Positions 4,157 to 55,316 of a DNA stretch of 64,000 nucleotides are shown piece after piece. Positions within the stretch are counted from its first letter, which is position 1, and each line of letters begins with the position of its first letter. Under the pieces are notes generated by a model. It ran no database searches, was not told the origin of the DNA, and was given only the letters and a program-made list of their open reading frames with translations. The DNA is taken from the NCBI GenBank assembly GCA_044225175.1, contig JBGAJA010000004.1:145631-209630 (forward strand), in the 5' to 3' direction. Origin of the DNA: Candidatus Omnitrophota bacterium. GTDB taxonomy: Bacteria > Omnitrophota > Gorgyraeia > Zapsychrales > Fredricksoniimonadaceae. Both the position numbers and the translations under genes were made by a program.

Positions 4157-5088
4157 TAACGAGTATGTGTTGATCCCATGGTTTTTGCTTGAAAACGTTC
4201 CTTAGTCTTTGCCAAATCACCTTCATGCAGCGGAACATACCCTACTTCTTTAGCTAATTCTGAAGCATTTGCCAAGTAAAATTCTACAAATTTTTGGACA
4301 GATGGTTTTTCTGCCAAAGATTTCTTGCTTACGTATATAAACAATGGCCGAGATAAAGGAGAATAAGAACCATCTTGGACAGTTTCAATCGACGGACTAA
4401 CAGGATTTCCTGATTTTCCAACAATTGGAACAATTTTTAACTTATTCATATTCTGTTCATAATAAGCAAGTCCAAAATATCCTAAACCAGCTGTTTCTGA
4501 AGAAACACCTTCAACTAAAACATTATCATCTTCACTTGCCGTATAATCCCCCCGGCTTGCGGAAGTCTTGCCATTAATGACTTCTGTAAAATAGTCAAAT
4601 GTTCCAGAATCAGTCCCAGCCCCAAACAATTTAATTTCTTGATCTGGAAATCCAGCTCGAACCTGACTCCATTTTGTAATCTTACCTTGAGCAGATGGCT
4701 GCCAAATGGTTTTTAATTCATCAACTGTTAAATAATCAACCCAAGTATTCCTAGGGTTAATAACAACAGCTAAACCATCATAAGCTATTTCAAGTTCAAT
4801 GTATTCAATTGCAGATTCTTTACATGCAGTGATTTCTGATGCTTTAATTGGACGAGAGGCATTACTAATATCGGTTTCTCCACGACAAAAACGTTTGAAT
4901 CCTCCACCTGTTCCCGAAATACCAACCATCACCTTATCTGAGGAAACCTTACCAAACTCTTCAGCAACTGCTTCTGTGATTGGAAAAACAGTAGATGATC
5001 CATCTGCTTTAATAATAGCTGCCCAAGCTCCTGAGGAAAGGCTGACACATAGCAAACCCGCCATTGTTAAACTTAAGAAATTTTTCAT
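4156..5088 (-). CDS. pstS: phosphate-binding protein PstS
   Basis: It has a signal peptide and the periplasmic Pi-binding fold motifs [13 protein letters not shown] and GTGGGF. Confidence 0.85.
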
Positions 5089-5114
5089 TTTCTAACCTTT
5101 CTTTATCTGTTTAT

Positions 5115-6386
5115 TTAAAATTTAAGATTAAGATCTGCTTGAAACACTGACTGTGGATTCTTGACTGCTTTGATACGCTGGTCCCTATAATAATCAAATC
5201 CTAAAGAAACATTCTTGGTTAAACCATACTGTAGTTCCCATTCATTTCCCTTAACATCTGTAGCACCTCCTAGGCGATCTGAATCGGGAAATGCATCAGG
5301 AAAAGCATCTTTTCCTAAATTAGTGTATTGATACTTAAGCTGCCATTGCTTAGGACCTGCAACTTTTTCATCACCAATTTTAACACCAGCAGCCCAACCA
5401 GTATCGTCATCTTCAACAGCATTGGTAATATTCTTAATATAATCACCAAAAATGGCAAAACGTTCAATAGGTAAAATTTCAATTGGCTTCTTAACACCCA
5501 TTTCTACGGTCAATCCCATGGAATCATAATCATACTTCAAAACAGAACCAGCTAAGGTGTTAGATGAAGAGGTTCCATCTAACGTAATTCCTTTAACACC
5601 ATTGAATCCATAATAATTCCCCGCTAATGTTGCATCAAAAATGCCTTCATTAACTTTAAAACCAGCTTGAGTATATATTAGAAAAGGATCTGTGCGATCA
5701 GATTTATTGTTTTCATCAATAACCCATGCGCCTACATTTCCAAATACTGAGACTAAATCATTGAATTTATGATCTAAATGAACTGCCGCACCTGCAGGAT
5801 TAATGTCCGTATCCCACAACATATCGGAAGTCGTCCATAAATAATCTGATTTAACAAATTTACCAGCAATAACCTTACCCCATGTAAAAGGCTGATATTG
5901 TCCATAAGCATAGTCAATACGGACATCCCCTCTACGGAACGAATCATTAAATGTCATATTAGTTGAACGAGCATCATCAGTTGCAGTTCCGGTGCTATCG
6001 ACTTCAGAACTAGATAAACCAGCTCCAACCTTCCATTGGGTGTTAATCTGATTCTCAAGGCCTAAACGAAGTCTTAAACGTCCCCGTGTGCGGCTTTCTG
6101 TATCATTAGAACGTCTTTCATATTGATATCGAACACGCGCATCACCTTTAAGTGTAGTCTTTTTGACCCAATCAGGAACAACTGCTTTTGCAGAGTCTTC
6201 ATTAATAATTTTTGCATCTTCCGCTATTTCTAGCTTTAATTCGCGGGCTTCATGTTTATCCAAAATACCTTTTTCAACCAATTTCTGGATCAAAGAATCC
6301 ACTTGGGTGGAAGCAGCCCAGGAATTAGCTGGAACAACACTAACCATTGCTACAATAATTGATAACAACATACAAAATCTCTTCAT
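5115..6386 (-). CDS. outer-membrane porin, probably phosphate-selective (OprO/OprP-like), first gene of the pst operon
   Basis: It has a signal peptide (ANSWA|AS) and is beta-rich with alternating hydrophobics. The C-terminus ends ...DLNLKF, the terminal Phe of an OMP. It sits immediately upstream of pstS on the same strand, behind an SD AAGGAGGA. Confidence 0.6.
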   Translation of the reverse strand: MKRFCMLLSIIVAMVSVVPANSWAASTQVDSLIQKLVEKGILDKHEARELKLEIAEDAKIINEDSAKAVVPDWVKKTTLKGDARVRYQYERRSNDTESRTRGRLRLRLGLENQINTQWKVGAGLSSSEVDSTGTATDDARSTNMTFNDSFRRGDVRIDYAYGQYQPFTWGKVIAGKFVKSDYLWTTSDMLWDTDINPAGAAVHLDHKFNDLVSVFGNVGAWVIDENNKSDRTDPFLIYTQAGFKVNEGIFDATLAGNYYGFNGVKGITLDGTSSSNTLAGSVLKYDYDSMGLTVEMGVKKPIEILPIERFAIFGDYIKNITNAVEDDDTGWAAGVKIGDEKVAGPKQWQLKYQYTNLGKDAFPDAFPDSDRLGGATDVKGNEWELQYGLTKNVSLGFDYYRDQRIKAVKNPQSVFQADLNLKF

Positions 6387-6647: not shown

Positions 6648-7079
6648 TTATGTTAAGAGAAATTTGAGAACATCGTCGCGGGTAATGATGCCTTTAACAA
6701 AGCCATGTTCATCTACGATGGGAATACACCCAAATTTATGACTGACCATGTACTCTACAGCAGGATACAAAGAATCCTCTACTTTAAGGGTAAATATATC
6801 TTTGAACATCACATTCTTTAAGATGAAACTATTAAGAAGGTCTTTATCGTAAAACCACCTGCCATCTTCTAGCTTTCGGGGAGAATGAATTTTAAACAAC
6901 TCTCGTTGCGTGATTAGCCCTACTAGAGCACCACCATCACGAACAACTGGCAAATGTCGTATGTCATACAACTCAAACTTCTCATGAACCTTACTGAAAT
7001 CATCATTTTCGTTGACTGTGATCGCAGGAGAAGCCATAACATCTTTGATTTTTGTTTTCTTTAAGAAATCCATATGCAC
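6648..7079 (-). CDS. CBS-domain pair protein
   Basis: The 143-aa product has two CBS motifs (…HLPVVRDGGALVGLITQREL… and …GCIPIVDEHGFVKGIITRDDV…). Confidence 0.7.
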   Translation of the reverse strand: MHMDFLKKTKIKDVMASPAITVNENDDFSKVHEKFELYDIRHLPVVRDGGALVGLITQRELFKIHSPRKLEDGRWFYDKDLLNSFILKNVMFKDIFTLKVEDSLYPAVEYMVSHKFGCIPIVDEHGFVKGIITRDDVLKFLLT

Positions 7080-7120: not shown

Positions 7121-7558
7121 TTAATTGATTCTTTCCCAATCAGCAATGCCACCTTGTATCAATAAAAAAGAAGGATGAATCTTTAATACCTTAATGTCCT
7201 TCACAGTCTTTAATAAATCGGGTTTTCTGATTAAAAGTTTATTTTGAAGATGCTCACGTTCGTATTCCGCCTGACCCATAGTGACATTAATAAGTGATAA
7301 ATGTTCAGTAAACTTCAAACAAATTTTAGAACGATTGAAAGAATAGTTACGGCTAACCGCATCATCACATACCCCATGCAAATAATTAGCAATAGCTTTT
7401 AAAGGATGGGCATGAGATTTAAAACGAATTAGTTGAGGATGGTTTTTATACCCTTTGGTATCTCCCATCAAAACTTTCTGCGCCAATAATCCTTCCCTCC
7501 ATAAAGCAACTAGGCCCTGAGGATCTAAGTATTGAGGATGTAGCGACCAAAGCCTCAT
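7121..7558 (-). CDS. putative pyrimidine-dimer DNA glycosylase (Pyr_excise family)
   Basis: The N-terminus MRLWSLHPQYLDPQGLVALWREGLLAQKVL matches my recollection of bacterial endonuclease-V-like PDG proteins. The assignment is from memory only. Confidence 0.5.
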   Translation of the reverse strand: MRLWSLHPQYLDPQGLVALWREGLLAQKVLMGDTKGYKNHPQLIRFKSHAHPLKAIANYLHGVCDDAVSRNYSFNRSKICLKFTEHLSLINVTMGQAEYEREHLQNKLLIRKPDLLKTVKDIKVLKIHPSFLLIQGGIADWERIN

Positions 7559-8085
7559 TTTTTGACAGGCGTTTGAACAGTAGATGAAGCATCGCTAACA
7601 TCTAAAACTTTGATCTTAAAGGTCAATTGCTTGCCCGCTAAAGGATGATTAAAATCCAAGACAACTTTATTACCTTTAATTTCTGTCACAACAGCAGGAA
7701 AATTCTCCCCATCTGGAGCTTGGGCTTCCAAAACTGTCCCAATTTTCAAATCTGCATTCTTAGGCATTTGGTCTTTAGAAAATTCTTTTAAGGCCTTGGG
7801 GTCAACTTCTCCGTAAGCATCTTTGGCTTCTACAACAATGACCTTCTCTTCTCCAACCTTCATTCCGTCAATGCCTTTTTCCAAGCCAGGGATAATAGTT
7901 TGATCACCAAATACAAATTCTAAAGGTGTTTTTCCAACGGAAGTTTCCAGCTGTTCATTATTAACCGTTAGAGTGTAATCCATTTTTATCTTCTTGCCTT
8001 TCACAACAACCTCATCTTTAGCAAAAGCAAAGCTTGTTAAACCCATCATCAAAACACCTATAACTAATATACGTAAATATTTCAT
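7555..8085 (-). CDS. FKBP-type peptidyl-prolyl cis-trans isomerase (SlyD/FkpA-like, secreted)
   Basis: The FKBP core is present (FVFGDQTIIPGLEKGIDGMKVGEEKVIVVEAKDAYG…LDFNHPLAGKQLTFKIKV). The real start is MKYLRILVIGVLMMGLTSFAFA (signal peptide, ATG at 8083-8085). The track's 113-aa N-extension overlaps the neighbouring gene and is rejected. Confidence 0.75.
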   Translation of the reverse strand: MKYLRILVIGVLMMGLTSFAFAKDEVVVKGKKIKMDYTLTVNNEQLETSVGKTPLEFVFGDQTIIPGLEKGIDGMKVGEEKVIVVEAKDAYGEVDPKALKEFSKDQMPKNADLKIGTVLEAQAPDGENFPAVVTEIKGNKVVLDFNHPLAGKQLTFKIKVLDVSDASSTVQTPVKK

Positions 8086-8104
8086 ACAACTTCCTTTCTT
8101 TGAG

Positions 8105-9160
8105 TTACTGACAAATTCCTTTAGAGCAATGTTGATCTGAAGGGCAAACATTTCGACAGGTCCCGCAATTATTAGCATCAATTTGGGTATTAGTACAAAT
8201 ATCATCACAGATGTCAAAACGACATTGACAGGCTCCTTTGATGCAGGCCATATTAACCGCACATACATTTCCGCATTCACCGCAATTATAATTATCTGAG
8301 GTAGTATTAATACATTTTTCCCCACAGGCTTTATAACCAGCATCTTCACAAAGACAATCACCCTTAAAACATGTTGAATTTGAAGGACAAACAATCCCAC
8401 AGTTTCCACAATTTTTGCGATCATTCTGCGTATCTACACACGTACCCTGACACGTTTCATGTGGACAAGTACATCTTCCATTGGAACAAATAGCTTGAGA
8501 AGGACAAGAATTGTCGCAACCCCCGCAATTATTTGAATCTGATAAACTGTTGATACACTCTCCATAACAACTGATATTATAATCTGAAGAACAGCACACT
8601 CCCTGAACACAACTTTGATCCTTAGCACATCCACCCTGACAATTTAAACACCCCTTCATCTTATCTGAGGGCCCGCAAATACCATTGCAACAAATATACT
8701 CATCACAACCCTCACCATTAGTCACACACATATCATCTATATCCAAACCCGAGACCTTTCCTCGATCATCAATATCTAATTTCTCTCCCACAACTCCATT
8801 AAAGCCCTTGGAATACAAAACATAAAATTTACCGTTGGCACTTTTTAAATAACCATATTCAGAACGCTGCGAGGACAGCGGATCATATAAGGGCCTGTCA
8901 ATTTTAGGGGTCTTAACTTTTGTAAGATATTGAGAGCCTACCGTACTACTTTTAGGTGGGTATACATGAGGTTGGGAAAATATGTAATAAGACGTTACAG
9001 CGGATTCCATGGTCTTTAATTCTCTAATGACTTGAGTTTGCTTTAAAGAATGGACCATGTGAAATGAACCTATTGCCACAGTTAAGATGGCTATACTGAA
9101 GACTCCCAACAATAATAATAGTTGATTTGAAGTAAATGCAGTTCGACAGGATCGATTCAT
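8105..9160 (-). CDS. secreted or membrane-anchored cysteine-rich repeat protein (tandem NNCGxC knot modules)
   Basis: It has an N-terminal hydrophobic anchor. The C-terminal half holds at least 4 tandem ~37-aa repeats: C[IV][DN]x3Dx2NCGxCx2[VS]Cx5Cx2GxCxC. Confidence 0.6.
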   Translation of the reverse strand: MNRSCRTAFTSNQLLLLLGVFSIAILTVAIGSFHMVHSLKQTQVIRELKTMESAVTSYYIFSQPHVYPPKSSTVGSQYLTKVKTPKIDRPLYDPLSSQRSEYGYLKSANGKFYVLYSKGFNGVVGEKLDIDDRGKVSGLDIDDMCVTNGEGCDEYICCNGICGPSDKMKGCLNCQGGCAKDQSCVQGVCCSSDYNISCYGECINSLSDSNNCGGCDNSCPSQAICSNGRCTCPHETCQGTCVDTQNDRKNCGNCGIVCPSNSTCFKGDCLCEDAGYKACGEKCINTTSDNYNCGECGNVCAVNMACIKGACQCRFDICDDICTNTQIDANNCGTCRNVCPSDQHCSKGICQ

Positions 9161-20150: not shown

Positions 20151-20654
20151 TTACTGTGCTTTGTTCTTGAGCATATATCGCACCAATGCTTCATTGGATT
20201 GATGTAATCTTCGGGCTGTTTCTCTGGCTATATTAAGGATCAACATTCCAAAGAGTTCTTTATCAGTTTCGTAGATGTTAAGTAAGCAATGAGGTTCCAA
20301 GATAATTAACTGGGTGGGTTTGATAGCTAAAGCACTCGATGAATGCGATTGGATTCCGATGACAGAGGTTTCCCCAAAACAATCTCCATCTTTAAAAGAA
20401 ATCAATTCTAGACATATAGCCTCATTATCAATGAGCATTTTAACTTCGCCTTGTTTAATAATATAAATGTAACTGGACGCATCCCCTCTTTTATAGATGA
20501 ACTCTCCTTCATCATAGCTAACCGTCTTAAGCAATCGAAAGATCTCCTCTAATTGATGAGAGCTCAATCCCCCAAAGATAGAAATCTTCTTAATCATGGG
20601 AATAATGTCTTGGGGATTGGTCAGAGGAGAATATATCTTGGTCATAGCTGTCAT
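20151..20654 (-). CDS. cyclic-nucleotide-binding (CAP-family effector) domain protein without an HTH
   Basis: The 167-aa product has the cNMP-binding beta-roll motifs FIYKRGDASSYIYIIKQGEVKM…GDCFGE. Confidence 0.7.
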   Translation of the reverse strand: MTAMTKIYSPLTNPQDIIPMIKKISIFGGLSSHQLEEIFRLLKTVSYDEGEFIYKRGDASSYIYIIKQGEVKMLIDNEAICLELISFKDGDCFGETSVIGIQSHSSSALAIKPTQLIILEPHCLLNIYETDKELFGMLILNIARETARRLHQSNEALVRYMLKNKAQ

Positions 20655-20705: not shown

Positions 20706-22469
20706 TTAAGGATTTGATCCATCTGCTTTCAATATTTGCTCAAGCTGAGCGTTAGCCTGGGTCGTATAACTAATAAACTTCTTCTCATTATGACGATGTT
20801 CAAATTGTTCTTTTAATATCTTCTCATCATGAAATTTAAAGATTTCAAGCCTGCGTTTCACATGCTCAGGATGCAACCCTTTCTTCACTAATACTTCTTT
20901 AGCCACCTCAAGGCTTGTTAAATATGTTTCACGATGAATACTTTGAATGCCAATTTCCATCAAAAAAATCGCATGCTGCCTGTTTCTGGCTCGGGCTACA
21001 ATTTCGACTTCAGGGAAATGTTTTTTGACCGTTCTAGCGATTTCAATGGATTTTTCCATATCATCAACTGCTAACACAAAAAACTTGGCTTTAGCAGTGC
21101 CGGCAGATTCAAGAATATCCATTCGACTGGCGTCACCATAATAAACTTTATTACCAAATTTTCTGGCAATCTCAACTTGAGAAGCATCATTATCAAGAAT
21201 AGTAAAAGCAGTGACCTCTGATCTGAGTAAACGAGCTACGATTTGTCCAAATCGACCAAACCCAGCAATAATGACCTCGGGAGACTTCTCATCAATGGCA
21301 TCATAAGGACGTTCGGAGAGTTCAGATGACTTTCTGAAGTATTTCTGGTTTGCAGCAAAAATAAACGGAGTCAGCATCATGCTCATGGTGACTGCGACAT
21401 TTAGGATAGAGGCATTTTCATGAGAGAGAATATTGTTAGAAAACGCCACACTAAAGAGCACAAAAGCAAATTCTCCGCCTTGAGGTATTGTAAAGGCCAT
21501 GTTCTTGGCTGCATCTTTATCAAACCGAAAGATTCGCCCTAACCCAAAAATAATTAAACCTTTTAAGATGATAAATCCAAGCGTGACTGCAAGAACAACC
21601 CAGGGTTTGGCTACGATGACGTGCAGATCAAGCGACATTCCAATAGCGATAAAAAATAATCCCAGAAGCAGGCCTTTAAAAGGCAAAAGACTTGCCACCA
21701 ATTCATGCCTATACTCCGAATTGGCTAAAAGTATGCCAGCCATAAACGCCCCCATACCCATGGATAATCCAATAGCCTCGAACAAGACTGCTGTGCCTAA
21801 AACAACCATGAGGGCCATGGCAATAAAAACTTCCTGGAGTTTAGTTTCTGCAATGATACGAAAAACATGTCGAATCACATAATTACCTAGCAAAACAACC
21901 ACCACAAGTACCCCTAATACTTTGACAATTCCCCCGATACTAAATGAATTACCTTCGCCACCTGAAAAGAATGATAAAAGCGCAAGAATAGGCACAACTG
22001 CAATGTCTTGAAACATCAACACCGCAAATGCACCTTGGCCATGTTTTGTGTTTAATTGTCTATGAGATTCGAGAAGCGGTACTGCAAAAGCGGTCGATGA
22101 TAAAGCTAATCCAAAACCTGCCACAAAAGCAGCCAGCTTTTCAAGCCCAAGAAAACATCCAATTTGCATGAACAATAAGCCAGTGACTAAAACCTGTAAG
22201 AGGCCAAAACCAAAAATAGAACTGCGAAGTTTCCATAACTTGGCTGGTGTTAGCTCAAGCCCAATAATGAATAAAAGAAAAACAACGCCAAGCTCAGAGA
22301 ACTGCAAAATGACAACGGGATCTTTAATCCATCCTAAAACCATTGGTCCAACTAGAACACCAGCAAAAAGATATGCCAAAATCGGCCCAAGTCCAAATCT
22401 TGTAAATAAAGGAACAAAAAGGATCGCAACCGCGCTAAAGATTAACAGTTCGATAAGTACACTATGCAT
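20706..22469 (-). CDS. kefC: glutathione-regulated K+-efflux / cation:proton antiporter (KefB/KefC, CPA2 plus TrkA-N)
   Basis: It has a 13-TM Na_H exchanger domain and a Rossmann RCK N-domain (EVIIAGFGRFGQIVARLL). A strong SD GGAGGTTTC precedes the ATG at 22467-22469. Confidence 0.85.
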   Translation of the reverse strand: MHSVLIELLIFSAVAILFVPLFTRFGLGPILAYLFAGVLVGPMVLGWIKDPVVILQFSELGVVFLLFIIGLELTPAKLWKLRSSIFGFGLLQVLVTGLLFMQIGCFLGLEKLAAFVAGFGLALSSTAFAVPLLESHRQLNTKHGQGAFAVLMFQDIAVVPILALLSFFSGGEGNSFSIGGIVKVLGVLVVVVLLGNYVIRHVFRIIAETKLQEVFIAMALMVVLGTAVLFEAIGLSMGMGAFMAGILLANSEYRHELVASLLPFKGLLLGLFFIAIGMSLDLHVIVAKPWVVLAVTLGFIILKGLIIFGLGRIFRFDKDAAKNMAFTIPQGGEFAFVLFSVAFSNNILSHENASILNVAVTMSMMLTPFIFAANQKYFRKSSELSERPYDAIDEKSPEVIIAGFGRFGQIVARLLRSEVTAFTILDNDASQVEIARKFGNKVYYGDASRMDILESAGTAKAKFFVLAVDDMEKSIEIARTVKKHFPEVEIVARARNRQHAIFLMEIGIQSIHRETYLTSLEVAKEVLVKKGLHPEHVKRRLEIFKFHDEKILKEQFEHRHNEKKFISYTTQANAQLEQILKADGSNP

Positions 22470-35749: not shown

Positions 35750-36217
35750 TTATGCCTTCGCTTGATCACAAGGCGCTTTCCAGGCCCAGAGGTTGAAGGT
35801 TTTGTTGGTTTCGAGGTAGGTTTTCATGTTGGAAAGGACTAGTGGCCAGCCTACTGAGATTTTGGAGGCCATATCTGAGCCTTCAACTAGCTTATCGTGA
35901 GTGACGACTAGGCGGACCATGTCTTCTAGGCTGTCGATTTCAAATGTGACGCGGGATTGATCAGATTTGTTGGAAGGTTCGACCCAGGTTATGACTAAGC
36001 GTTTTGGAGGGTTTACTTCAATGACTTCCCCGCATACTCTGGCTTCATTGTTGCTCTTGCCCTTTTCTACGTGATACCAGGGAGAGCCTTTCTTCCAATC
36101 GGAAACATTGCCATGTCCCCAATATTGACGTGCGAATTCTGGATTGGTGATGGCTTGCCAGACTTTCTCTGGGGTAGTTTTCATGTAGGTGGTGTAGACA
36201 AATTGGGTACTTTTCAT
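35750..36217 (-). CDS. SRPBCC-superfamily protein (AHSA1 / activator-of-Hsp90-ATPase-like)
   Basis: The 155-aa product has W/Y-rich motifs (TPEKVWQAITNPEFARQYWG) typical of AHSA1-like SRPBCC proteins. It is paired with ArsR, a common arrangement. Confidence 0.65.
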   Translation of the reverse strand: MKSTQFVYTTYMKTTPEKVWQAITNPEFARQYWGHGNVSDWKKGSPWYHVEKGKSNNEARVCGEVIEVNPPKRLVITWVEPSNKSDQSRVTFEIDSLEDMVRLVVTHDKLVEGSDMASKISVGWPLVLSNMKTYLETNKTFNLWAWKAPCDQAKA

Positions 36218-36546
36218 TTCTTTTCTCCTTGTGTTAGTGCTGCTTTTAAATTATGTAAAGCCTTAAGATGGCCTCGTTCAAATTTTCCAATCCATCGCAT
36301 GTAGATTTCCTGAACAGGAACTGGATTAAGATAATGTTTCTTATGGCGCCCTTCCTTCCTTGTAGTGACCAAATTAGCTTTCTCCAAAATAAGAAGATGC
36401 TTGCTGACCGCCTGACGGCTCATATCATGATATTCGCAAAGCTCATTTAAAGTCTGACCATTCTTGGCGTGAAGATGATCTAAGATCTTTCTTCTACTGC
36501 TATCGGCTAAGGCTTTGAAGACTTTATCCATGCGCCAATTATGCAA
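36214..36546 (-). CDS. ArsR/SmtB-family transcriptional regulator
   Basis: It has a winged HTH with LNELCEYHDMSRQAVSKHLLILEKANLV. It overlaps the SRPBCC gene by 4 nt. Confidence 0.75.
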   Translation of the reverse strand: MHNWRMDKVFKALADSSRRKILDHLHAKNGQTLNELCEYHDMSRQAVSKHLLILEKANLVTTRKEGRHKKHYLNPVPVQEIYMRWIGKFERGHLKALHNLKAALTQGEKK

Positions 36547-36601
36547 CTATTTGGTTGCATGTCAAGGAAAATTATATCCTCTCTTTGGCATCTAAAATAA
36601 T

Positions 36602-36629
36602 TTGACAGCGCCTAGGACAATTGTATACT
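36602..36629 (+). promoter_or_regulatory. sigma70-type promoter TTGACA-N16-TATACT
   Basis: TTGACA is at 36602-36607 and TATACT at 36624-36629. The predicted transcription start near 36637 is just upstream of the riboswitch aptamer. Confidence 0.5.
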
Positions 36630-36659
36630 TTTTGGATAACTTAATTTCCTGTTTCAATA

Positions 36660-36800
36660 AGCTGTTTAATCAGCTTACAGGAAAGCGGGGGACCCAAAAG
36701 GCCAATTGTGGCCTGGGGGCTAATGCTCAATACCTCACAAGGTAGGAGCAAGGACCACTCAATCCTAGCCCGACAGCTAACCTCGTCTGCTAATCAAATG
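36660..36800 (+). promoter_or_regulatory. c-di-AMP riboswitch (ydaO/kimA class) in the 5' leader of the KimA-like transporter
   Basis: The leader carries blocks that match my recollection of the B. subtilis ydaO leader: AAGCGGGGGACCCAA (cf. CACGGGGAGCCA); GGGGGCUAAUGC (cf. GGGGUGAAUC); AGGUAGGAGCAAGG (cf. AGGUAGGCGAAC); AGCCCGACAGCUAACCUCGUCUGC (cf. AGCCCGAAUCCGUCAGCUAACCUCGUAAGC). The downstream gene is the same family (KimA) that this riboswitch controls in Bacillus. Confidence 0.65.
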
Positions 36801-36811
36801 AGGGAAACTAT

Positions 36812-36841
36812 CCAGAGAGAGTCTCCTCTGGATTTTCGTTT
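36812..36841 (+). terminator. candidate attenuator/terminator of the riboswitch expression platform
   Basis: CCAGAG(agagtctc)CTCTGG is followed by ATTTTCGTTT. The short 6-bp stem gives only weak to moderate support. Confidence 0.35.
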
Positions 36842-36862
36842 GCCTCAGGGAGGTAGTTGCGT

Positions 36863-38821
36863 ATGTTTGCACGTTTAAAGCAGTTGTTTATTGGTAAACC
36901 GAAGAATCCCCATGACCTAAACATCTTTCATCGGATGTCATTGATCGCCGTTCTAGCCTGGGTCGGTTTAGGCGCAGATGGTCTGTCCTCTTCCTGTTAT
37001 GGGCCCGAGGCAGCTTATCTAGCTCTTGGTGAACACAAGTATTTGGCTATTTTTGTGGCCATTCTATCTGCAGTCACCATCTTTCTCATTAGCGCCAGCT
37101 ATTCACAAATCATTGAATTATTCCCAAGCGGTGGTGGTGGCTATCTGGTTGCAAGTCGTTTGATTAATCCAACGGTTGGCATGATCTCCGGCTGTGCCTT
37201 GCTAATCGATTATGTTTTAACGATTGCCATCTCAATTGCAAGCGGTGCCGATGCTTTATTTAGCTTTCTCCCCGTCGGTATATTGCCTTATAAATTGCCA
37301 TTTGAAATAGCAGGCGTGTTTCTCTTGATGGTCATGAATATGCGTGGGGTTAAAGAATCTGTTGTCCCTTTAACTCCCATTTTTATGACCTTCATCGTCA
37401 CCCATGCCTTTGCCATTGGCTATGCCATCTATCTTCATTCCTCTCAATTACCCAATATCGTGAGCGCCACAAGCCAGGAAGTCTCCTCCCTTCATGCATC
37501 TATCGGCGCATTTGGGATTTTGTTTATTATTCTTAAAGCGTTCAGTTTAGGTGCTGGAACCTTTACAGGAATTGAAGCCGTCAGTAATGGTTTGCCTGCA
37601 TTAAGAGAGCCCAAGGTTCAAACGGGTAAGAAAACCATGATGTATATGGCCCTCTCCTTGGCCATCACCGTCGTAGGGTTAATCATTGGGTATTTACTCT
37701 TTGATGTGCAAAAGATGGGCGATAAAACCCTGAATGCCTCTTTGTTTGAGCAATTAACTCGTACCTGGACATCTCCCTGGGGGTATACCTTTGTGATGGT
37801 CGCTTTGATTTCTGAAACCATGCTGTTATTTGTAGCGGCCCAAGCAGGTTACTTGGATGGCCCTCGTGTTCTAGCTAGCATGGCTGTTGATCGCTGGGCA
37901 CCTTCCAGATTTTCAAGCTTCAGTGATCGCTTGGTCACTCAAAACGGTATTATCCTCATGGGGATATCCTCTTTGATTATTCTAGTTGTGACGCAGGGCT
38001 CTGTGGCTGCGCTCGTGATTCTTTACAGTATCAATGTATTTATCACCTTCTGCCTCTCCCAATGGGGCATGGTTGTGCATTGGTGGCAAGTGCGCAACGA
38101 AGAACGCGCTTGGATTAAAAAAATCATCGTCAACGGCAGCGGCTTATTGTTGACGGGATTTATTCTGGTTTCCATGGTCATTCTCAAATTCCATGAAGGC
38201 GGCTGGGTAACGCTCGCCATGACAGCAGCCTTGGCTTGTGGCGCGTGGGGCATTCGCAAGCATTATCGAAACACCTTAAACAAACTGCGCAGCTTATCTC
38301 CTTTAACTGAGGCTGTTGAAAAGGATATTCCTCAAGGCGCTGGGCCCATTGATAAGCCTTCCATCGAAGGTAAAACGGTGATTATCCTAGTCAATGGCTA
38401 TAACGCTTTAGGACTGCATACCCTTTTTAATGCCGTACGCATCTTTAAAAGCGATGTAAAAAACTTTGTCTTTATCCAAATCGGCGTCATTGATGCTGAG
38501 ACGTTTAAAGGCAAGGAAGAAATGAGCAAGCTAAAAGTCAGTGTGGAAGCTGACTTAAAAAAGTACGAACAGTTAATGCAGTCCCACGGCTACTTCGCCA
38601 AAGGCCATTATGCCTTAGGCACAGACATCACTCTTGAAATCGAAGAACTCGTGGTCCGCTTGCGTCGGGTCTATGACAATTGCATTGTCTTTGGCGGGCA
38701 GGTGGTCTTTGAGAAGGAGTCCCTCCTTACCAGGTTCCTGCATAACCATACGGTTTTTGCCGTACACAAACGTCTGTACTATCAAGGCATTCCTATGATG
38801 ATCTTGCCTGTGAGGTTGTAA
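36863..38821 (+). CDS. APC-superfamily K+ transporter, KimA-like (membrane domain plus ~200-aa cytoplasmic C-terminal domain)
   Basis: The 652-aa product has an ~12-TM APC fold (…LIAVLAWVGLGADGLSSSCYGPEAAY…) and a soluble C-terminal domain. It sits behind a c-di-AMP riboswitch. The ATG at 36863 follows an SD GGGAGG at 36848-36853; the track start at 36857 is TTG. Confidence 0.65.
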   Translation: MFARLKQLFIGKPKNPHDLNIFHRMSLIAVLAWVGLGADGLSSSCYGPEAAYLALGEHKYLAIFVAILSAVTIFLISASYSQIIELFPSGGGGYLVASRLINPTVGMISGCALLIDYVLTIAISIASGADALFSFLPVGILPYKLPFEIAGVFLLMVMNMRGVKESVVPLTPIFMTFIVTHAFAIGYAIYLHSSQLPNIVSATSQEVSSLHASIGAFGILFIILKAFSLGAGTFTGIEAVSNGLPALREPKVQTGKKTMMYMALSLAITVVGLIIGYLLFDVQKMGDKTLNASLFEQLTRTWTSPWGYTFVMVALISETMLLFVAAQAGYLDGPRVLASMAVDRWAPSRFSSFSDRLVTQNGIILMGISSLIILVVTQGSVAALVILYSINVFITFCLSQWGMVVHWWQVRNEERAWIKKIIVNGSGLLLTGFILVSMVILKFHEGGWVTLAMTAALACGAWGIRKHYRNTLNKLRSLSPLTEAVEKDIPQGAGPIDKPSIEGKTVIILVNGYNALGLHTLFNAVRIFKSDVKNFVFIQIGVIDAETFKGKEEMSKLKVSVEADLKKYEQLMQSHGYFAKGHYALGTDITLEIEELVVRLRRVYDNCIVFGGQVVFEKESLLTRFLHNHTVFAVHKRLYYQGIPMMILPVRL

Positions 38822-38876: not shown

Positions 38877-39047
38877 CTAACTCTTTTGACCAATTAAGAA
38901 ATAAAGAATCATCCCAAGGACCGGTAAAATCAATATTAAAATGACCCATAGGGCTTTTTTACCTGAATCCATGGAACTTTGTACTACATGAGCAATAGCA
39001 ACAATATCTAAAACAAAGATAAGAAATCCAACAAGACTTAAACTCAT
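38877..39047 (-). CDS. small membrane protein of the PLD-nuclease N-terminal domain (PLDc_N) family; not in the ORF track
   Basis: I translated MSLSLVGFLIFVLDIVAIAHVVQSSMDSGKKALWVILILILPVLGMILYFLIGQKS (56 aa). Its two TM helices and the AIxHV…GKKALW core are typical of this family. Confidence 0.55.
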   Translation of the reverse strand: MSLSLVGFLIFVLDIVAIAHVVQSSMDSGKKALWVILILILPVLGMILYFLIGQKS

Positions 39048-39079
39048 ACTTATATTCCTTTCCGTGAAAATACTGGAAT

Positions 39080-39241
39080 TTAAACCTTCCTTTTTAATTC
39101 ACTGGCGGCACGATCGATCTTATTTTTGACATTGCCACGAAACTCATCTGCCTTACCCTCTGCTTTTAAACGCTTATTATTGGTCAAGTCCCCTGCAGCT
39201 TGTTTCACTCGGCCTTTAATCTTATCCATTTGTCCATCCAT
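39080..39241 (-). CDS. CsbD-family general stress protein; not in the ORF track
   Basis: I translated MDGQMDKIKGRVKQAAGDLTNNKRLKAEGKADEFRGNVKNKIDRAASELKRKV (53 aa). An SD GGAGG lies 5 nt upstream. It has the CsbD pattern K.KG..K…G….L.A.GK. Confidence 0.6.
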   Translation of the reverse strand: MDGQMDKIKGRVKQAAGDLTNNKRLKAEGKADEFRGNVKNKIDRAASELKRKV

Positions 39242-50349: not shown

Positions 50350-52947
50350 TTAGAAATTCGCATCATTCGAATAATTATCATAATCCGATGCTCTACACAT
50401 TCCATCACTATCACCTGAAGACATATCCGTACACATACCCCCCTCTTTCACTGGAGGGCCTGGATCATAGATACAAGTCAAGCATTTCCAATCAGTCCAA
50501 TGGTCACCAGCCCATGTATTCTCAGGGCATGCATTCATACAATGATTATCATCCACAACTGGATCATAATCACATTTTTCACACTTGGCTTGTTGACAAA
50601 AATCAGCCCTAGTCCCATCTAAAGTTCTACAGCAAGAGTATTTTTCAGGATCTTGGGCAAAATATTGTATACAGTGATTATCATGGCATTCATATATATA
50701 ACAAGGATCCGCAGGGCAATCGGTAGCGACATTACATGTATCTCCAGTATCAGACCCCGTTCCTGTACCTGTTCCTGATCCAGTGGCACTTCCTGTAGAG
50801 GAACCTGTGGAACTACCGGTGGATGAACCTGTCGAACTTCCCGTCGAAGAACCAGTTGAGCTTCCGGTCGATGATCCAGTTGAACTTCCCGTAGATGAGC
50901 CTGTTGAGCTTCCCGTAGATGATCCAGTTGAACTTCCGGTAGATGATCCTGTTGAACTTCCCGTAGATGAGCCTGTTGAACTTCCGGTAGATGATCCAGT
51001 TGAACTTCCCGTAGATGAGCCTGTTGAACTTCCGGTAGATGATCCAGTTGAACTTCCCGTAGATGAGCCTGTTGAGCTTCCAGTAGATGAGCCAGTTGAA
51101 CTTCCCGTAGATGAGCCTGTTGAGCTTCCGGTCGATGATCCAGTTGAACTTCCCGTAGATGAGCCTGTTGAGCTTCCTGTAGATGATCCAGTTGAGCTTC
51201 CAGTAGATGAGCCAGTTGAACTTCCCGTAGATGAGCCTGTTGAGCTTCCTGTAGATGATCCAGTTGAGCTTCCCGTAGATGATCCAGTTGAACTTCCGGT
51301 AGATGATCCAGTCGAGCTTCCCGTAGATGATCCAGTCGAACTTCCAGTCGATGATCCAGTTGAACTTCCGGTAGATGATCCAGTTGAACTTCCGGTAGAT
51401 GATCCAGTTGAACTTCCGGTAGATGATCCAGTTGAACTTCCAGTCGAGGAACCAGTCGAACTTCCAGTCGATGATCCTGTCGCAGTTCCTGAACCACAAG
51501 GTGTGCATTGATGAAGAACACAGCAGAAGTCATCTGCACAGTCTCCTTCATCTATACAAGATTCCTCACCATCACCAGTTGAGCCGCTGTCAGACATATT
51601 TCCCGTGGAACTACCGGTAGATGATCCTGTCGAACTTCCCGTCGAGGAACCAGTTGAGCTGCCTGTAGAGGAACCCGTCGAACTTCCCGTTGAAGAGCCG
51701 GTTGAGCTACCCGTAGATGATCCGGTAGAACTTCCTGTCGAAGATCCAGTTGAACTTCCGGTGGATGATCCTGTCGAACTACCAGTCGATGATCCTGTTG
51801 AACTACCAGTCGATGATCCTGTCGAACTTCCCGTCGAGGAACCAGTTGAACTACCTGTAGAAGAACCGGTTGAACTTCCTGTTGAGGAACCGGTTGAGCT
51901 TCCAGTGGCTGAACCGTCTGAATCATCCGTAGAACTGCCCGTTGATGATCCCGTTGAATCCCCCGTAGACGTACCCGTTGATGATCCCGTCGAACTTCCC
52001 GTCGAGGAACCAGTTGAACTGCCAGTAGATGAACCAGTTGAACTTCCCGTAGATGATCCTGTTGAGCTACCCGTAGATGATCCCGTTGAACTTCCCGTGG
52101 ATGATCCGGTTGAACTTCCCGTAGATGATCCCGTTGAACTTCCCGTAGATGAACCTGTTGAACTTCCTGTGGGTGAACCTGTTGAACTTCCTGTGGAGGA
52201 ACCTGTTGATGTACCAGTCGAACTTCCCGTAGATGATCCCGTTGAACTTCCGGTCGATGATCCTGTTGAACTTCCGGTCGATGATCCTGTCGAACTACCT
52301 GTCGATGAACCTGTTGAGCTACCCGTAGATGATCCCGTTGAACTTCCAGTTGATGAACCAGTCGAACTTCCCGTCGAGGAACCAGTCGAACTTCCAGTTC
52401 CTGTTCCAGTACCGGTTCCAGTTCCCCCTCCACTATCAGCTGGCATTCCACACGTATAAAGAAGTGAGGTAAACGATCCTGGGCAAGTCGCACCAGGCAC
52501 CCCTCCTCGACAATAAGGATTGGGCGGGATAGCAGCATCATTCGTATAATAGATTGGGATATTTCCAGGATTAAGCGGTTTATCCAAATCCACAATCATG
52601 GTAAAGCCTCCACCACCCTGTCTTTGAGCAAAACAAACATTGCTATTGGAACTGTTGGTTGGACAGCATCTATAAACCAAACCATTATTTGGCGTAATAT
52701 TTAAATTAAGGCTCTTGTTAATGCCCACAACATCTGCCCCACCTCCGGAAAAAGGATAATATTTTCCATGGGCCTGTTTATAGTTAAGCTGTGAGTTTTT
52801 AATGGCAATCAGATTACGCAGGGCATCTGTAGAAACGGATCGTTCATAAGTTTTGGTGAAATTGACTAAAGCGGAAGAAGCTAAAATACCTAAAACCAAC
52901 ATTGAAACAAGGACTTCAATTGTAGTAAAGGAAGGTGATTTTCTCAT
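50350..52947 (-). CDS. giant type IV pilin/pseudopilin-like protein with two (SSTG)n mucin-like repeat blocks and Cys-knot modules (865 aa)
   Basis: The N-terminus is MRKSPS|FTTIEVLVSMLVLGILASSALVNF, a prepilin-type methylation motif with Glu at +5. An ~140-aa Cys-containing head follows (YRCCPTNSS, VCFAQRQGGGG, PYCRGG…CPG…YTCGMPA). Next come (SSTG)n, the CIDEGDCADDFCCVLHQCTPCGSG knot, a second (SSTG)n and a Cys-rich C-terminal domain. Confidence 0.6.
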   Translation of the reverse strand: MRKSPSFTTIEVLVSMLVLGILASSALVNFTKTYERSVSTDALRNLIAIKNSQLNYKQAHGKYYPFSGGGADVVGINKSLNLNITPNNGLVYRCCPTNSSNSNVCFAQRQGGGGFTMIVDLDKPLNPGNIPIYYTNDAAIPPNPYCRGGVPGATCPGSFTSLLYTCGMPADSGGGTGTGTGTGTGSSTGSSTGSSTGSSTGSSTGSSTGSSTGSSTGSSTGSSTGSSTGSSTGSSTGSSTGSSTGTSTGSSTGSSTGSPTGSSTGSSTGSSTGSSTGSSTGSSTGSSTGSSTGSSTGSSTGSSTGSSTGSSTGSSTGSSTGSSTGTSTGDSTGSSTGSSTDDSDGSATGSSTGSSTGSSTGSSTGSSTGSSTGSSTGSSTGSSTGSSTGSSTGSSTGSSTGSSTGSSTGSSTGSSTGSSTGSSTGSSTGSSTGSSTGSSTGSSTGSSTGNMSDSGSTGDGEESCIDEGDCADDFCCVLHQCTPCGSGTATGSSTGSSTGSSTGSSTGSSTGSSTGSSTGSSTGSSTGSSTGSSTGSSTGSSTGSSTGSSTGSSTGSSTGSSTGSSTGSSTGSSTGSSTGSSTGSSTGSSTGSSTGSSTGSSTGSSTGSSTGSSTGSSTGSSTGSSTGSSTGSSTGSSTGSSTGSSTGSSTGSSTGSSTGSSTGSSTGSSTGSSTGSSTGSSTGSSTGSSTGSSTGSSTGSSTGSSTGSSTGSSTGSSTGSATGSGTGTGTGSDTGDTCNVATDCPADPCYIYECHDNHCIQYFAQDPEKYSCCRTLDGTRADFCQQAKCEKCDYDPVVDDNHCMNACPENTWAGDHWTDWKCLTCIYDPGPPVKEGGMCTDMSSGDSDGMCRASDYDNYSNDANF
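50765..51490. repeat. imperfect 24-nt tandem repeat array encoding (SSTG)n, block 2 of the 865-aa gene
   Basis: The unit is agtagatgagcctgttgaacttcc / ggtagatgatccagttgaacttcc, alternating about 30 times. Confidence 0.8.
51600..52428. repeat. imperfect 12/24-nt tandem repeat array encoding (SSTG)n, block 1 of the 865-aa gene
   Basis: The plus strand reads gatgatcc[ag]gttgaacttcc[cg]gta… with periodicity. Several frames on both strands stay open across it. Confidence 0.8.
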
Positions 52948-52955
52948 GTTTTAAA

Positions 52956-55316
52956 TTATAAACAATAGTTACAACCACTTACACTTGGACAAGAGGGAGC
53001 AGGATCATCCCCCCCTTCAATTAACGTACAGTCACCCCAACCAGCTGCACCAGAGCAACATTTATACACACCTTCATCAACATCAATACACGTAGTTACA
53101 GGTAAATCGCAATTAGGGTCTGCAGTATGTACACAAGATGTTATACAGCATAACTCTGATATGTGAGGAATAATAGCAAAAAAGGCACAATCTCCGGATC
53201 CGCTTCCAGTCCCAGTCCCCGTTCCCGAACCACTTCCGGTCCCTGTACCTGTTCCCGTACCACTACCTGATCCTGTGCCAGTGCCTGTCCCATCTCCTAC
53301 GTTTTGGCACTTGCCTGCATTGCAATACTGAGTTGCTGCATCACAACAGAAATCTGACGTGGTCGCACAACTGTTCGTAGAGCAGCCTCCACAATTATTT
53401 ATGTCTGTATCAGGATTAATATACATACACGTCTGATCAGGCTGACAACAGCCACCTGAACATTCATAACCAGGGTCTCCACAAACTGCTGGATCATCAC
53501 CGGTCCCCGTTCCTGAGCCTGTTCCCGTCCCGCTTCCTCCATCCCAAGGATCATTTTTACAGTGTCCTGTAATAGCCATATTTTTATTAATTTCAATAAA
53601 TATCAAAGGACTTGTGCTTACGTAATCCCCCGTCCATGTAACGAACCTAGCCCATGGTTTAGCCAGGACTGCAATAATATCTCCAAAATTATAGGATGAC
53701 TGTCCATGACTACTATTGCCATTGACAGCTATAACAGAAGCAAAATCACAATTATCATTATTGACAATCAAAGAATAATTGCTTCCAGTAGCAGTACCTG
53801 TCGAACTCCCCGTCGAGGAACCAGTCGAACTGCCTGTAGATGAGCCCGTTGAACTGCCTGTCGATGATCCTGTTGAACTGCCAGTAGATGATCCTGTTGA
53901 GCTTCCGGTAGATGAACCTGTTGAGCTTCCCGTAGATGACCCAGTTGAACTACCTGTCGATGATCCTGTTGAACTGCCAGTAGATGATCCTGTTGAGCTT
54001 CCGGTAGATGACCCAGTTGAACTACCTGTCGATGATCCTGTCGAACTTCCTGTAGAAGATCCGGTGGCGCTGCCTGTGGATGAACCTGTACCTGATCCGC
54101 AAACAGGGGTACAGAAATGCATGTTACAACAATAATCGTCGTCACAATCATCATCGTCTTCGCAAAACAAATTAGTGTTTGTGGAACCACTTTCATTGTG
54201 ATTTCCAGTTGCTGATCCTGTAGAACTTCCAGTCGAAGACCCTGTTGAACTGCCTGTAGATGACCCGGTTGAGCTTCCCGTAGATGACCCAGTTGAACTG
54301 CCTGTAGATGACCCGGTTGAGCTTCCCGTAGATGACCCAGTTGAACTGCCTGTAGATGACCCGGTTGAGCTTCCCGTAGATGACCCAGTCGAACTGCCTG
54401 TAGATGACCCGGTTGAGCTTCCCGTAGATGACCCAGTTGAACTGCCTGTAGATGACCCGGTTGAGCTTCCCGTAGATGACCCGGTTGAGCTTCCCGTAGA
54501 TGACCCGGTTGAGCTCCCCGTAGATGACCCAGTCGAACTGCCTGTAGATGACCCAGTTGAACTGCCTGTAGATGACCCAGTTGAACTGCCTGTAGATGAC
54601 CCGGTTGAGCTTCCCGTAGATGACCCAGTTGAACTGCCTGTAGATGAGCCGGTGGAACTTCCAGTGGATGAGCCTGTAGAACTTCCGGTTGATGACCCTG
54701 TCGAACTACCCGTCGAAGATCCTGTTGAACTGCCTGTGGATGAACCAGTCGAACTACCTGTAGATGACCCGGTTGAACTTCCCGTTCCAGTTCCAGTCCC
54801 TGTTCCACCCCCTCCAGCAGGCATTCCACAAGTATAGACAGAGGTAATATAATTCCCAGGACAAACCGCCCCACTCTGTCCCCCTCGGCAATAGGGATTA
54901 TGAGTCCCATCAAAATACACAGGCACATTTCCAGGATTAAGAGGAGCATCCAGGTCCAAAATCATACTAAAAGCCCCAACTCCTTGCCTCTGGGCGTAAC
55001 ACACATTATTATTAGCACTGTTCGAGGGACAACATTTATATTTTAATCCATTACTGGGTGTAATGTTTAATCCAAGGTTTTTATTAATATCCGCGATACT
55101 CGCATCTGCTGATCCAGAAGAAGAATAATATTTTCCATGAGACTGCAAATAGCTAAGCTGAGCGCTCTTAATGGCCATTAAATTATGCATAGCATCACGG
55201 CCAACAGTTTTTTCAAATGTTCTTAGGAAGTTAGGAAGGGCAATAGAGACCAAAATCCCTAAAATAAGGATTGTTATGAGGATTTCAATGATGGTAAAAG
55301 AAGGTGTTCTTTTCAT
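52956..55316 (-). CDS. giant type IV pilin/pseudopilin-like protein with (SSTG)n repeats, a Cys knot and an NNCGxC-type Cys-rich C-terminus (786 aa)
   Basis: The N-terminus is MKRTPS|FTIIEILITILILGILVSIALPNF. The head has YKCCPSNS, VCYAQRQG and PYCRGG…CPG…YTCGMPA, paralogous to the downstream gene. It continues with (SSTG)n, CEDDDDCDDDYCCNMHFCTPVCGSG, (SSTG)n and a ~110-aa domain. The tail is CGDPGYECSGGCCQPDQTCMYINPDTDINNCGGCSTNSC…GKCQ, then a Gly/Thr linker and a final Cys-rich segment. Confidence 0.6.
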   Translation of the reverse strand: MKRTPSFTIIEILITILILGILVSIALPNFLRTFEKTVGRDAMHNLMAIKSAQLSYLQSHGKYYSSSGSADASIADINKNLGLNITPSNGLKYKCCPSNSANNNVCYAQRQGVGAFSMILDLDAPLNPGNVPVYFDGTHNPYCRGGQSGAVCPGNYITSVYTCGMPAGGGGTGTGTGTGSSTGSSTGSSTGSSTGSSTGSSTGSSTGSSTGSSTGSSTGSSTGSSTGSSTGSSTGSSTGSSTGSSTGSSTGSSTGSSTGSSTGSSTGSSTGSSTGSSTGSSTGSSTGSSTGSSTGSSTGSSTGSSTGSSTGSSTGSSTGSSTGSSTGSSTGSSTGSSTGSSTGSSTGSSTGSSTGSSTGSSTGSSTGSATGNHNESGSTNTNLFCEDDDDCDDDYCCNMHFCTPVCGSGTGSSTGSATGSSTGSSTGSSTGSSTGSSTGSSTGSSTGSSTGSSTGSSTGSSTGSSTGSSTGSSTGSSTGSSTGSSTGSSTGSSTGSSTGSSTGSSTGTATGSNYSLIVNNDNCDFASVIAVNGNSSHGQSSYNFGDIIAVLAKPWARFVTWTGDYVSTSPLIFIEINKNMAITGHCKNDPWDGGSGTGTGSGTGTGDDPAVCGDPGYECSGGCCQPDQTCMYINPDTDINNCGGCSTNSCATTSDFCCDAATQYCNAGKCQNVGDGTGTGTGSGSGTGTGTGTGSGSGTGTGTGSGSGDCAFFAIIPHISELCCITSCVHTADPNCDLPVTTCIDVDEGVYKCCSGAAGWGDCTLIEGGDDPAPSCPSVSGCNYCL
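53785..54097. repeat. 24-nt tandem repeat array encoding (SSTG)n, block 2 of the 786-aa gene
   Basis: It has the same periodicity and about 13 units. Confidence 0.75.
54205..54815. repeat. 24-nt tandem repeat array encoding (SSTG)n, block 1 of the 786-aa gene
   Basis: The unit is cgtagatgacccagttgaactgcc / tgtagatgacccggttgagcttcc. Codon choice differs from the repeats of the neighbouring gene. Confidence 0.8.

Follow-up and report, generated by a model that had tools for sequence, protein, structure and literature searches.

A 64-kb stretch of contig JBGAJA010000004.1 (the window; all coordinates are window positions) carries, on the + strand, a riboswitch of the cyclic di-AMP (c-di-AMP) or ydaO class directly ahead of a gene for a KimA-type K+ importer. 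The interval 36602-36862 is very probably the promoter and 5' leader of this gene, with the riboswitch acting as an OFF switch, probably on both transcription and translation. Direct support comes from family membership, the helices of the aptamer, their conservation, the identity of the downstream gene, and an alternative helix between the 3' tail of the aptamer and a segment beyond the terminator-like hairpin (anti-tail).

A c-di-AMP riboswitch in the kimA leader

Rfam family RF00379 (c-di-AMP riboswitch, ydaO/yuaA leader) matches 36650-36807 (+) over the full model (1-134) with 51.9 bits (gathering threshold 38, E 3.7e-9), and is the sole Rfam family above threshold in the whole 64 kb. The original prediction had called a ydaO-class riboswitch from four sequence blocks and had proposed this search, which proved positive; all four blocks are present where it placed them (GCGGGGGACCCA at 36685-96, GGGGGCUAAUGC at 36715-26, AGGUAGGAGCAAGG at 36740-53, and AGCCCGACAGCUAACCUCGUCUGC at 36767-90). 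The core blocks CGGGGGA-CC, GGGGC, and AGCCCG-CAGCUAACCUCG are invariant among 22 aligned members, including the window, and match the 4QLM construct. With its own promoter ahead of it and a KimA homologue behind it, the element occupies the 5' leader of a gene type known from the regulon (K+/osmolyte transport, cell wall). The kimA leader is confirmed as a genuine member of the known class, an unsurprising result, and standard annotation pipelines would find this copy since it passes the curated threshold. By homology, the leader is expected to bind c-di-AMP. A chance resemblance to RF00379 is effectively refuted already, given the E-value, the score above the curated threshold, the compensatory changes and conservation in eight distinct relatives of the same clade, and the expected type of gene downstream.

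A homologue scan using one genome per species returned 79 loci. The nearest homologues (91, 80, 59, 56, and 55% identity) belong to metagenome-assembled genomes (MAGs) labelled 'uncultured Planctomycetales bacterium'. RF00379 is present upstream of the homologue in 20 of the 79 loci, namely the nearest one (L003) and 19 that are mostly labelled Verrucomicrobiota or Planctomycetota; three of these 19 (L035, L036, and L042) carry discordant labels. Among the 19 distant loci the riboswitch is directly upstream of the KimA homologue in 17 and about 2 kb away in 2, with the core and the pseudoknot topology shared. Eight more loci of the same clade as the window (seven distinct; KimA 65-83% identical) all have RF00379 directly upstream, at 49-67 bits. 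The window, L003, and the seven further distinct loci (designations L081-L083 and L085-L088 included) constitute the nine clade leaders compared below. Among the 79 loci, RF00379 was not found with Rfam upstream in those of Chlorobiaceae, Omnitrophota, Elusimicrobiota, Methanosarcinaceae, Binataceae, and Burkholderiales, and a covariance model built from the hits detected no weaker copies in them.

Several loci depart from the simple arrangement. In L025 (722-893) and L037 (348-512), both of Verrucomicrobiota type, a distance of about 2 kb that includes another gene separates the riboswitch from the downstream kimA. L004, from the same MAG as L003, holds a second KimA paralogue (56% identical) without a riboswitch. 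In the Desulfobacula locus L014, a strong RF00379 copy (5082-5215, 86.5 bits) is located downstream of kimA and presumably serves the next gene.

The elements of the riboswitch-kimA unit are as follows.

36602-36607 (+): -35 hexamer TTGACA; identical in L003, present in 9 of 9 clade leaders
36624-36629 (+): -10 hexamer TATACT; ends 9 nucleotides (nt) before the first element of the aptamer
36639-36642 (+): position of the P1 5' strand, ACUU, followed by the junction AA at 36643-44; clade table
36645-36684 (+): P2, a long irregular hairpin; UUUCCUGU 36645-52 with ACAGGAAA 36677-84, and inside it AAGCUG 36659-64 with CAGCUU 36671-76
36650-36807 (+): aptamer, as the extent of the RF00379 match
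36685-36690 (+): P3 5' strand GCGGGG, partner CCUCGU 36781-86; 6 of 6 pairs in nine leaders, 99.2% paired in the 22-sequence alignment
36700-36713 (+): P4 insert hairpin GGCC-AAUUGU-GGCC; from folds
36717-36771 (+): P5, GGGC 36717-20 with GCCC 36768-71; encloses P6 and P7; compensatory change in L081
36725-36749 (+): P6, GCUC 36725-28 with GAGC 36746-49, and UACCU 36731-35 with AGGUA 36740-44; compensatory changes in L003 and others
36752-36765 (+): P7, GGA 36752-54 with UCC 36763-65; compensatory change in L087
36756-36761 (+): CACUCA of the P7 loop, 5' strand of the pseudoknot; placed with the sequence of the 4QLM construct (PMC5393176)
36774-36786 (+): invariant core CAGCUAACCUCGU, including the P3 3' strand 36781-86; RF00379 match and alignment
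36799-36808 (+): tail UGAGGGAAAC; supplies the 3' strand of the pseudoknot (36799-804) and, in the alternative, the 5' strand of the tail/anti-tail helix
36810-36841 (+): intrinsic-terminator-like hairpin, AUCCAGAG 36810-17 with CUCUGGAU 36826-33, then a U-rich run; -11 kcal/mol, conserved
36838-36847 (+): anti-tail or anti-Shine-Dalgarno (anti-SD) segment GUUUGCCUCA, just past the U run; pairs 9 of 10 with the tail, or through CCUC with the Shine-Dalgarno (SD)
36848-36853 (+): SD GGGAGG, with GGAGG 9 nt before ATG 36863
36863-38821 (+): kimA-like gene, 652 amino acids (aa), KUP/KimA-type K+/H+ symporter with a C-terminal USP/HUP-fold domain; from homology and a structural model

Aptamer helices and pseudoknot

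RNAalifold applied to the 22 aptamers recovered P2, P3, the base of P4, P5, P6, and P7, with compensatory change in 16 of 28 pairs. In a model-guided alignment of the 22 sequences with P1 and the pseudoknot added, which was fitted to the structure and is therefore biased towards it, 93.3% of cells are paired vs 79.3% in column shuffles, and 21 pairs are changed on both sides vs 14.4 expected. None of 500 shuffles reached the observed values, and sliding the 3' partners by 1-3 columns lowered pairing to 37-50%. Between the window and L003, four pairs differ on both sides yet still pair (36661/74, 36663/72, 36726/48, and 36727/47), two compensatory pairs lying in the inner stem of P2, and there are no disruptive substitutions. 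P2, P3, P5, P6, and P7 pair in all nine leaders, bar one mismatched or gapped cell each in P2 of L083 and P6 of L087; P2 itself has 8 of 8 pairs in the window and 7-8 of 8 throughout the clade, again with changes on both sides.

In the pseudoknot, CACUCA (36756-61) meets UGAGGG (36799-804) in five of six possible pairs, the remaining position being an A.G mismatch. Across the 22-sequence alignment the corresponding helix reaches 91.5% pairing, and three of its pairs are changed on both sides. A lack of covariation in the helices and pseudoknot had been named among the results that would speak against the original prediction; instead, P2-P7 and the pseudoknot pair with compensatory changes.

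A promoter that travels with the riboswitch and gene

The original prediction also gave the leader a dedicated near-consensus promoter, and TTGACA-16-TATACT is indeed found at 36602-36629, scoring 11 of 12. Promoter-like and terminator-like matches are about as frequent in the 700-nt region as chance would give (2 found vs 1.2 expected, and 1 vs 0.7, respectively). A lone match is no better than chance, and we take both elements as real because they are conserved across the clade leaders. The pattern [T/G]TGACA-16/17-TAnnnT is kept in all nine, its -10 hexamer ending 8-16 nt before the aptamer. Compared with L003, both window hexamers are identical at 6 of 6 positions, whereas the spacer is identical at merely 7 of 16. 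The most likely transcription start is near 36636, right at the aptamer. The genes on either side are different in every same-clade locus; because promoter, riboswitch, and gene are kept together in all nine leaders despite this, they travel as one unit.

The downstream gene encodes a KimA-type K+/H+ symporter

The product of the regulated gene aligns to Bacillus subtilis KimA (PDB 6S3K) with an E-value of 9.6e-59 (residues 1-483 vs 1-469, 145 of 463 identical), including the LeuT-fold domain of 12 transmembrane (TM) helices, while Pfam reports AA_permease_2 alone on the 652-aa product. The residues of the K+ site and of H+ coupling are all kept: KimA D36, Y43, T121, T230, Y377, E233, D117, and S125 correspond to D39, Y46, T120, T235, Y388, E238, D116, and S124 in the window protein. 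The roles of these residues in KimA have been described (PMC6994465, PMC10284832). KimA Y118 and N237 are conserved as well. R337 of KimA, which contacts c-di-AMP, aligns to Ser348, with Arg349 adjacent. About 26 residues from the C-terminus, an LHNxT motif with an invariant His-Asn resembles the KimA pocket H579-N580-Q581-S582, a likeness at the level of the motif.

The C-terminal 183 aa gave no sequence-level match to the KimA cytosolic domain or in the PDB, even with a 25-sequence profile; an initial database search with this domain had yielded 7 fragments. An AlphaFold2 model of the domain based on 44 homologues (predicted local distance difference test 87, predicted template-modelling score 0.83) matches KimA:c-di-AMP 8B70_A (E 1.7e-4, template-modelling score 0.49) and USP/HUP folds, including KdpD-USP:c-di-AMP 7JI4. 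The assignment as a KimA-type K+/H+ symporter holds, with a modelled C-terminal domain that is KimA-like at the level of the fold. The predicted architecture of a KimA-like transporter with a large cytoplasmic C-terminal domain is thus recovered by sequence for the TM domain and by fold for the remainder.

The start codon is ATG 36863 and not TTG 36857, as had been argued from the sequence. ATG 36863 aligns with KimA residue 1, and GGAGG of the SD is 9 nt from it, vs merely 3 nt from TTG 36857. In L003 neither of the two codons preceding the ATG is an in-frame start codon, all seven relatives that were looked up are called as 650-652-aa products, and an independent assembly carries an identical 652-aa gene call. 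Thousands of close homologues in public records (P0008-P0127) are named 'APC family permease' or 'amino acid transporter', none of them KimA or potassium transporter.

Terminator, tail/anti-tail helix, and the proposed switch

The aptamer is followed by an 8-bp hairpin (36810-36833) and then TTTCGTTTGC. A hairpin with a U run occurs in eight of the nine clade leaders, U making up 5-7 of the next 8 nt, and the stem covaries, L081, L083, L085, and L086 included (variants across the leaders CCAAAAG/CUUUUGG, CCAGAA/UUCUGG, CCAGGGAA/UUCUCUGG, and CCAGAGA/UCUUUGG). Because hairpin and U run are conserved and the stem covaries, this is very likely a working intrinsic terminator.

A second structure spans the terminator. 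The tail UGAGGGAAAC and the segment GUUUGCCUCA form a duplex of -11.8 kcal/mol, vs a shuffle mean of -5.7 (fraction 0.013 in the window; median across eight leaders 0.013). From leader to leader the two strands vary together (AAAC/GUUU, AAUA/UAUU, AUAA/UUAU; GAGGG/CCUC, GGGGG/CCCC), a correspondence read by eye and uncounted by any tool, and 6 of 8 leaders include the helix in the minimum-free-energy fold of their read-through form. The anti-tail strand ends in CCUC(A), which is able to pair with the SD instead. When the first six tail nucleotides are blocked, as they would be in the pseudoknot, predicted SD accessibility falls in 8 of 8 leaders (0.71 to 0.20 in the window). Of the alternative pairings, the one between the pseudoknot 3' strand and the anti-SD segment beyond the terminator has the best support, and it suggests that translation is controlled too. 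The attenuator of the original prediction stands only in part: the terminator-like hairpin and U-tract are conserved, but they are one component of an expression platform in which the tail/anti-SD pairing points beyond termination.

In the switch that we propose, c-di-AMP would lock the aptamer, including the pseudoknot between the P7 loop and the tail. Once the tail is held there, the terminator hairpin and U run would be free to act, and in transcripts that read through, CCUC of 36838-47 would pair with the SD at 36848-53. At low c-di-AMP, the free tail would pair with the anti-tail segment, perhaps after an initial pairing with the pyrimidine-rich terminator 3' strand; the SD would then be open, KimA would be made, and K+ imported. 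The net effect of bound c-di-AMP would be less K+ uptake. This OFF direction agrees with the Bacillus precedent and with physiology, high c-di-AMP being a signal of K+ sufficiency. In B. subtilis, binding of c-di-AMP to the ydaO/kimA riboswitch suppresses kimA expression (PMC10284832, PMC6488665). Ligand binding, the direction of regulation, and control of termination by the ligand are what we infer.

The platform might instead be a purely transcriptional attenuator, as in Bacillus and as first predicted, in which the ligand stabilises the aptamer, the terminator forms, and nothing else happens. The conserved hairpin and U run in eight of nine leaders would suit such a device, and termination is used by the B. 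subtilis kimA and B. thuringiensis kdp riboswitches (PMC10284832, PMC6488665). Pairing of the tail with the terminator 3' strand, a conceivable antiterminator, is possible in 8 of 8 leaders and in L085 exceeds the terminator in strength (-10.2 vs -8.7 kcal/mol). However, this pairing is within the expectation from composition and, in the window, 5 kcal/mol weaker than the terminator; L087 lacks a terminator altogether; and neither the tail/anti-tail helix, strongly supported and downstream of the U run, nor the effect on the SD would be explained. We regard control by termination alone as unlikely.

Conversely, the hairpin and U run could be a ligand-independent spacer or a constitutive partial terminator, with tail, anti-SD, and SD as the sole switch. 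The well-supported tail/anti-tail helix and the altered SD accessibility in 8 of 8 leaders are compatible with this, as is the formation of the terminator in both constrained states in silico. In L087 (riboswitch at 1356-1503), which lacks the terminator, the pseudoknot 3' strand GGGAGUG is the SD itself, 5 nt from the AUG, and an A-U pair replaces the usual A.G mismatch, so that pseudoknot and SD overlap directly. Yet a U run immediately after the stem is conserved in 8 of 8 leaders and is unneeded for the tail/anti-tail helix (it is the unpaired UUUUUUA in L003, for example), which is the signature of a working terminator. Translation as the only level of control is accordingly somewhat unlikely in our judgement, and the dual-level OFF switch is preferred.

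Several observations weigh against the dual-level switch. The terminator forms in thermodynamic folds with or without the aptamer enforced, and no statistically supported antiterminator emerged when each aptamer segment was tested for duplexes with either terminator strand; the tail/terminator 3' strand pairing is no better than shuffles of the tail (fraction 0.29 in the window, median 0.14). The pseudoknot is short (five pairs and the A.G mismatch), its duplex energy only marginally better than shuffles (0.058). Occlusion of the SD is sensitive to the amount of coding sequence included and is lost for L003 when the construct is longer. The consensus helix P1 does not form in the window, where ACUU (36639-42) and CUGC (36787-90) make one of four pairs. 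The strands in the clade table, which underlies the helix, pseudoknot, terminator, and platform tests, were parsed by hand because neither MAFFT nor the custom covariance model correctly aligns the window and L003 to sequences of Verrucomicrobiota type around P5/P6. Finally, no DisA_N/DAC domain was found with Pfam among the 46 open reading frames (ORFs) scanned in the 64-kb window, a set that takes in nearly every ORF of at least 130 aa.

One further candidate antiterminator, the P3 5' strand with the terminator 3' strand, was the best duplex of the search at -14.7 kcal/mol; it is long-range and was chosen in no fold.

Leaders without P1

P1 is proper and covarying in five of the nine leaders, L082, L088, L086, L087, and L085 (ACUU/AAGU twice, GCUU/AAGC, GCUU/AGGC, and GUU/AAC). 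The window, L003, L081, and L083 share a non-pairing CUGC after P3. The P4 loop AAUYGU is exclusive to these four P1-less leaders, the five others having different P4 loops; no pairing was found between the P4 insert (36700-36713) and CUGC (36787-36790).

Two kinds of replacement for P1 were considered and rejected. The P1 of the Rfam alignment (AGCU 36660-63 with UGCU 36788-91) falls inside the inner P2 stem (P2b), which has two compensatory changes relative to L003, and L003 breaks it. Substitute partners for CUGC(UAAU) in the 5' leader, sought in folds and by reading the leaders by eye (GGAUA/UAUCC, UUUCC/GGAAA, and CAG/CUG), are either unconserved between the window and L003 or compete with the far stronger P2.

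Loss of P1 could mean that the aptamer is degenerate, with c-di-AMP binding weakened or abolished, leaving a constitutive attenuator or drifting to another ligand. Four leaders with one of four P1 pairs beside five sisters that retain the helix would be in keeping with such decay. Against this, no invariant core nucleotide is lost in the P1-less leaders, whose other helices are all retained with compensatory changes; these leaders score above the gathering threshold (49-67 bits); and CUGC is conserved among them, which argues for constraint and not decay. We therefore consider a degenerate aptamer very unlikely.

A more elaborate proposal is that the sub-lineage of the window, L003, L081, and L083 gave up P1 while keeping CUGC and the P4 loop AAUYGU, perhaps as a replacement tertiary contact, with the terminator nested in the covarying tail/anti-SD helix and one ligand-captured strand governing both termination and ribosome access. 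Taken as a whole, this is a doubtful proposal. If true, the class would include a variant that is distinct in structure and controls expression at two levels, in a phylum where such riboswitches are unstudied.

c-di-AMP signalling and neighbouring genes

c-di-AMP signalling in the host organism is a reasonable inference from the leader and its gene. The window also contains a stand-alone CBS-pair protein (6648-7079, -), a type that is a c-di-AMP receptor in Firmicutes, and a Na+/H+-exchanger-family (cation/proton) protein with a TrkA_N (RCK) domain (20706-22469, -) that adjoins a cyclic-nucleotide (cNMP)-binding protein (20151-20654, -). Both CBS-pair proteins and RCK-domain exchangers bind c-di-AMP in other bacteria (Firmicutes). 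The presence of these genes hints at c-di-AMP signalling but is only suggestive. A similar exchanger gene lies divergently beside kimA in L081 and L087.

Other features of the window were recorded in passing.

36538-36565 (-): promoter-like TTGACA-16-CATAAT, with a perfect palindrome ATGCAAC-N6-GTTGCAT (36541-36560) in its spacer
36531 (-): ATG of an ArsR-family gene, 7 nt downstream of this site; an AHSA1/SRPBCC gene (36217..35750) is next
about 38877-39241 (-): PLDc_N (56 aa) and CsbD (53 aa), small stress-type genes directly downstream of kimA on the opposite strand; calls on an identical Logan contig
50350-55316 (-): two long ORFs (865 and 786 aa) without a Pfam match; G+C 0.45 vs about 0.39; overlapped by many long ORFs on both strands
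8105-9160 (-): ORF with a C-terminal match to a cysteine-rich Pfam family of plants, 'Stigma-specific STIG1-like' (E 5e-17); overlaps an FKBP-type isomerase ORF (7555-8424)

The palindrome is probably an autoregulatory operator of the ArsR-family gene, and we regard it as unrelated to kimA because it is absent from L003.

Comparison with known systems

c-di-AMP riboswitches ahead of K+ transporters had already been predicted in several phyla, including Verrucomicrobia, according to PMC6488665, which cites earlier surveys. No paper discussing the class in Planctomycetes was found. The riboswitch-kimA pairing, studied in Firmicutes, is here extended to uncultured Planctomycetota/Verrucomicrobiota-type lineages, with promoter, riboswitch, and gene travelling as one cassette. 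For a gene recorded as 'APC family permease' or 'amino acid transporter', the analysis provides a sound annotation, a KimA-type K+ importer under predicted c-di-AMP control. The conserved KimA-like C-terminal domain suggests that the Bacillus-type double control, at the levels of RNA and protein, may be ancient.

The closest functional parallel is the ydaO/kimA riboswitch of B. subtilis (PMC10284832), which is likewise of the RF00379 family, precedes a KimA symporter gene, has a terminator-like hairpin after the aptamer, and matches the OFF direction expected here. Unlike B. subtilis, the window host is an uncultured bacterium of PVC type, and its nearest relatives are Planctomycetales-labelled MAGs and not a Firmicute. 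Placement by the labels of these MAGs is provisional, since a G+C content of 39% in the window is low for Planctomycetales. The window leader also differs in having no P1, in a P2 that is a long irregular hairpin, and in a platform that adds the relay of tail, anti-SD, and SD. The B. thuringiensis kdpFABC riboswitch (PMC6488665) similarly combines a c-di-AMP riboswitch with a terminator to control high-affinity K+ uptake; it serves a different transporter family and is experimentally validated, whereas the window copy is a prediction from sequence.

At the structural level, the aptamer of Thermoanaerobacter tengcongensis ydaO (4QLM/4QLN; sequence in PMC5393176) shares GCGGGGGACCCA identically and GGGGGC-AAU and AGCCCG-CAGCUAACCUCG nearly so, and both RNAs form a pseudoknot of the same topology between the 3' tail and the last hairpin's loop. 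P1 is present in the T. tengcongensis construct (CGCU/AGCG) and missing in the window; the P2 hairpin, absent from the construct, is large in the window; and the pseudoknot has 8 bp in the construct but 5 bp and an A.G mismatch in the window. The 19 Verrucomicrobiota/Planctomycetota-type loci have a GCC/GGC P1, a P2 loop CCUUCCU, and a tail GGAAGGG; none of these three features is shared by the window clade, whose alignment with these loci is poor around P5/P6. With its missing P1, its enlarged P2, and a relay in which terminator and anti-SD are nested, the window leader varies a known design. The relay and the P1-less variants make small, testable additions to the wiring of the class and do not overturn its current understanding.

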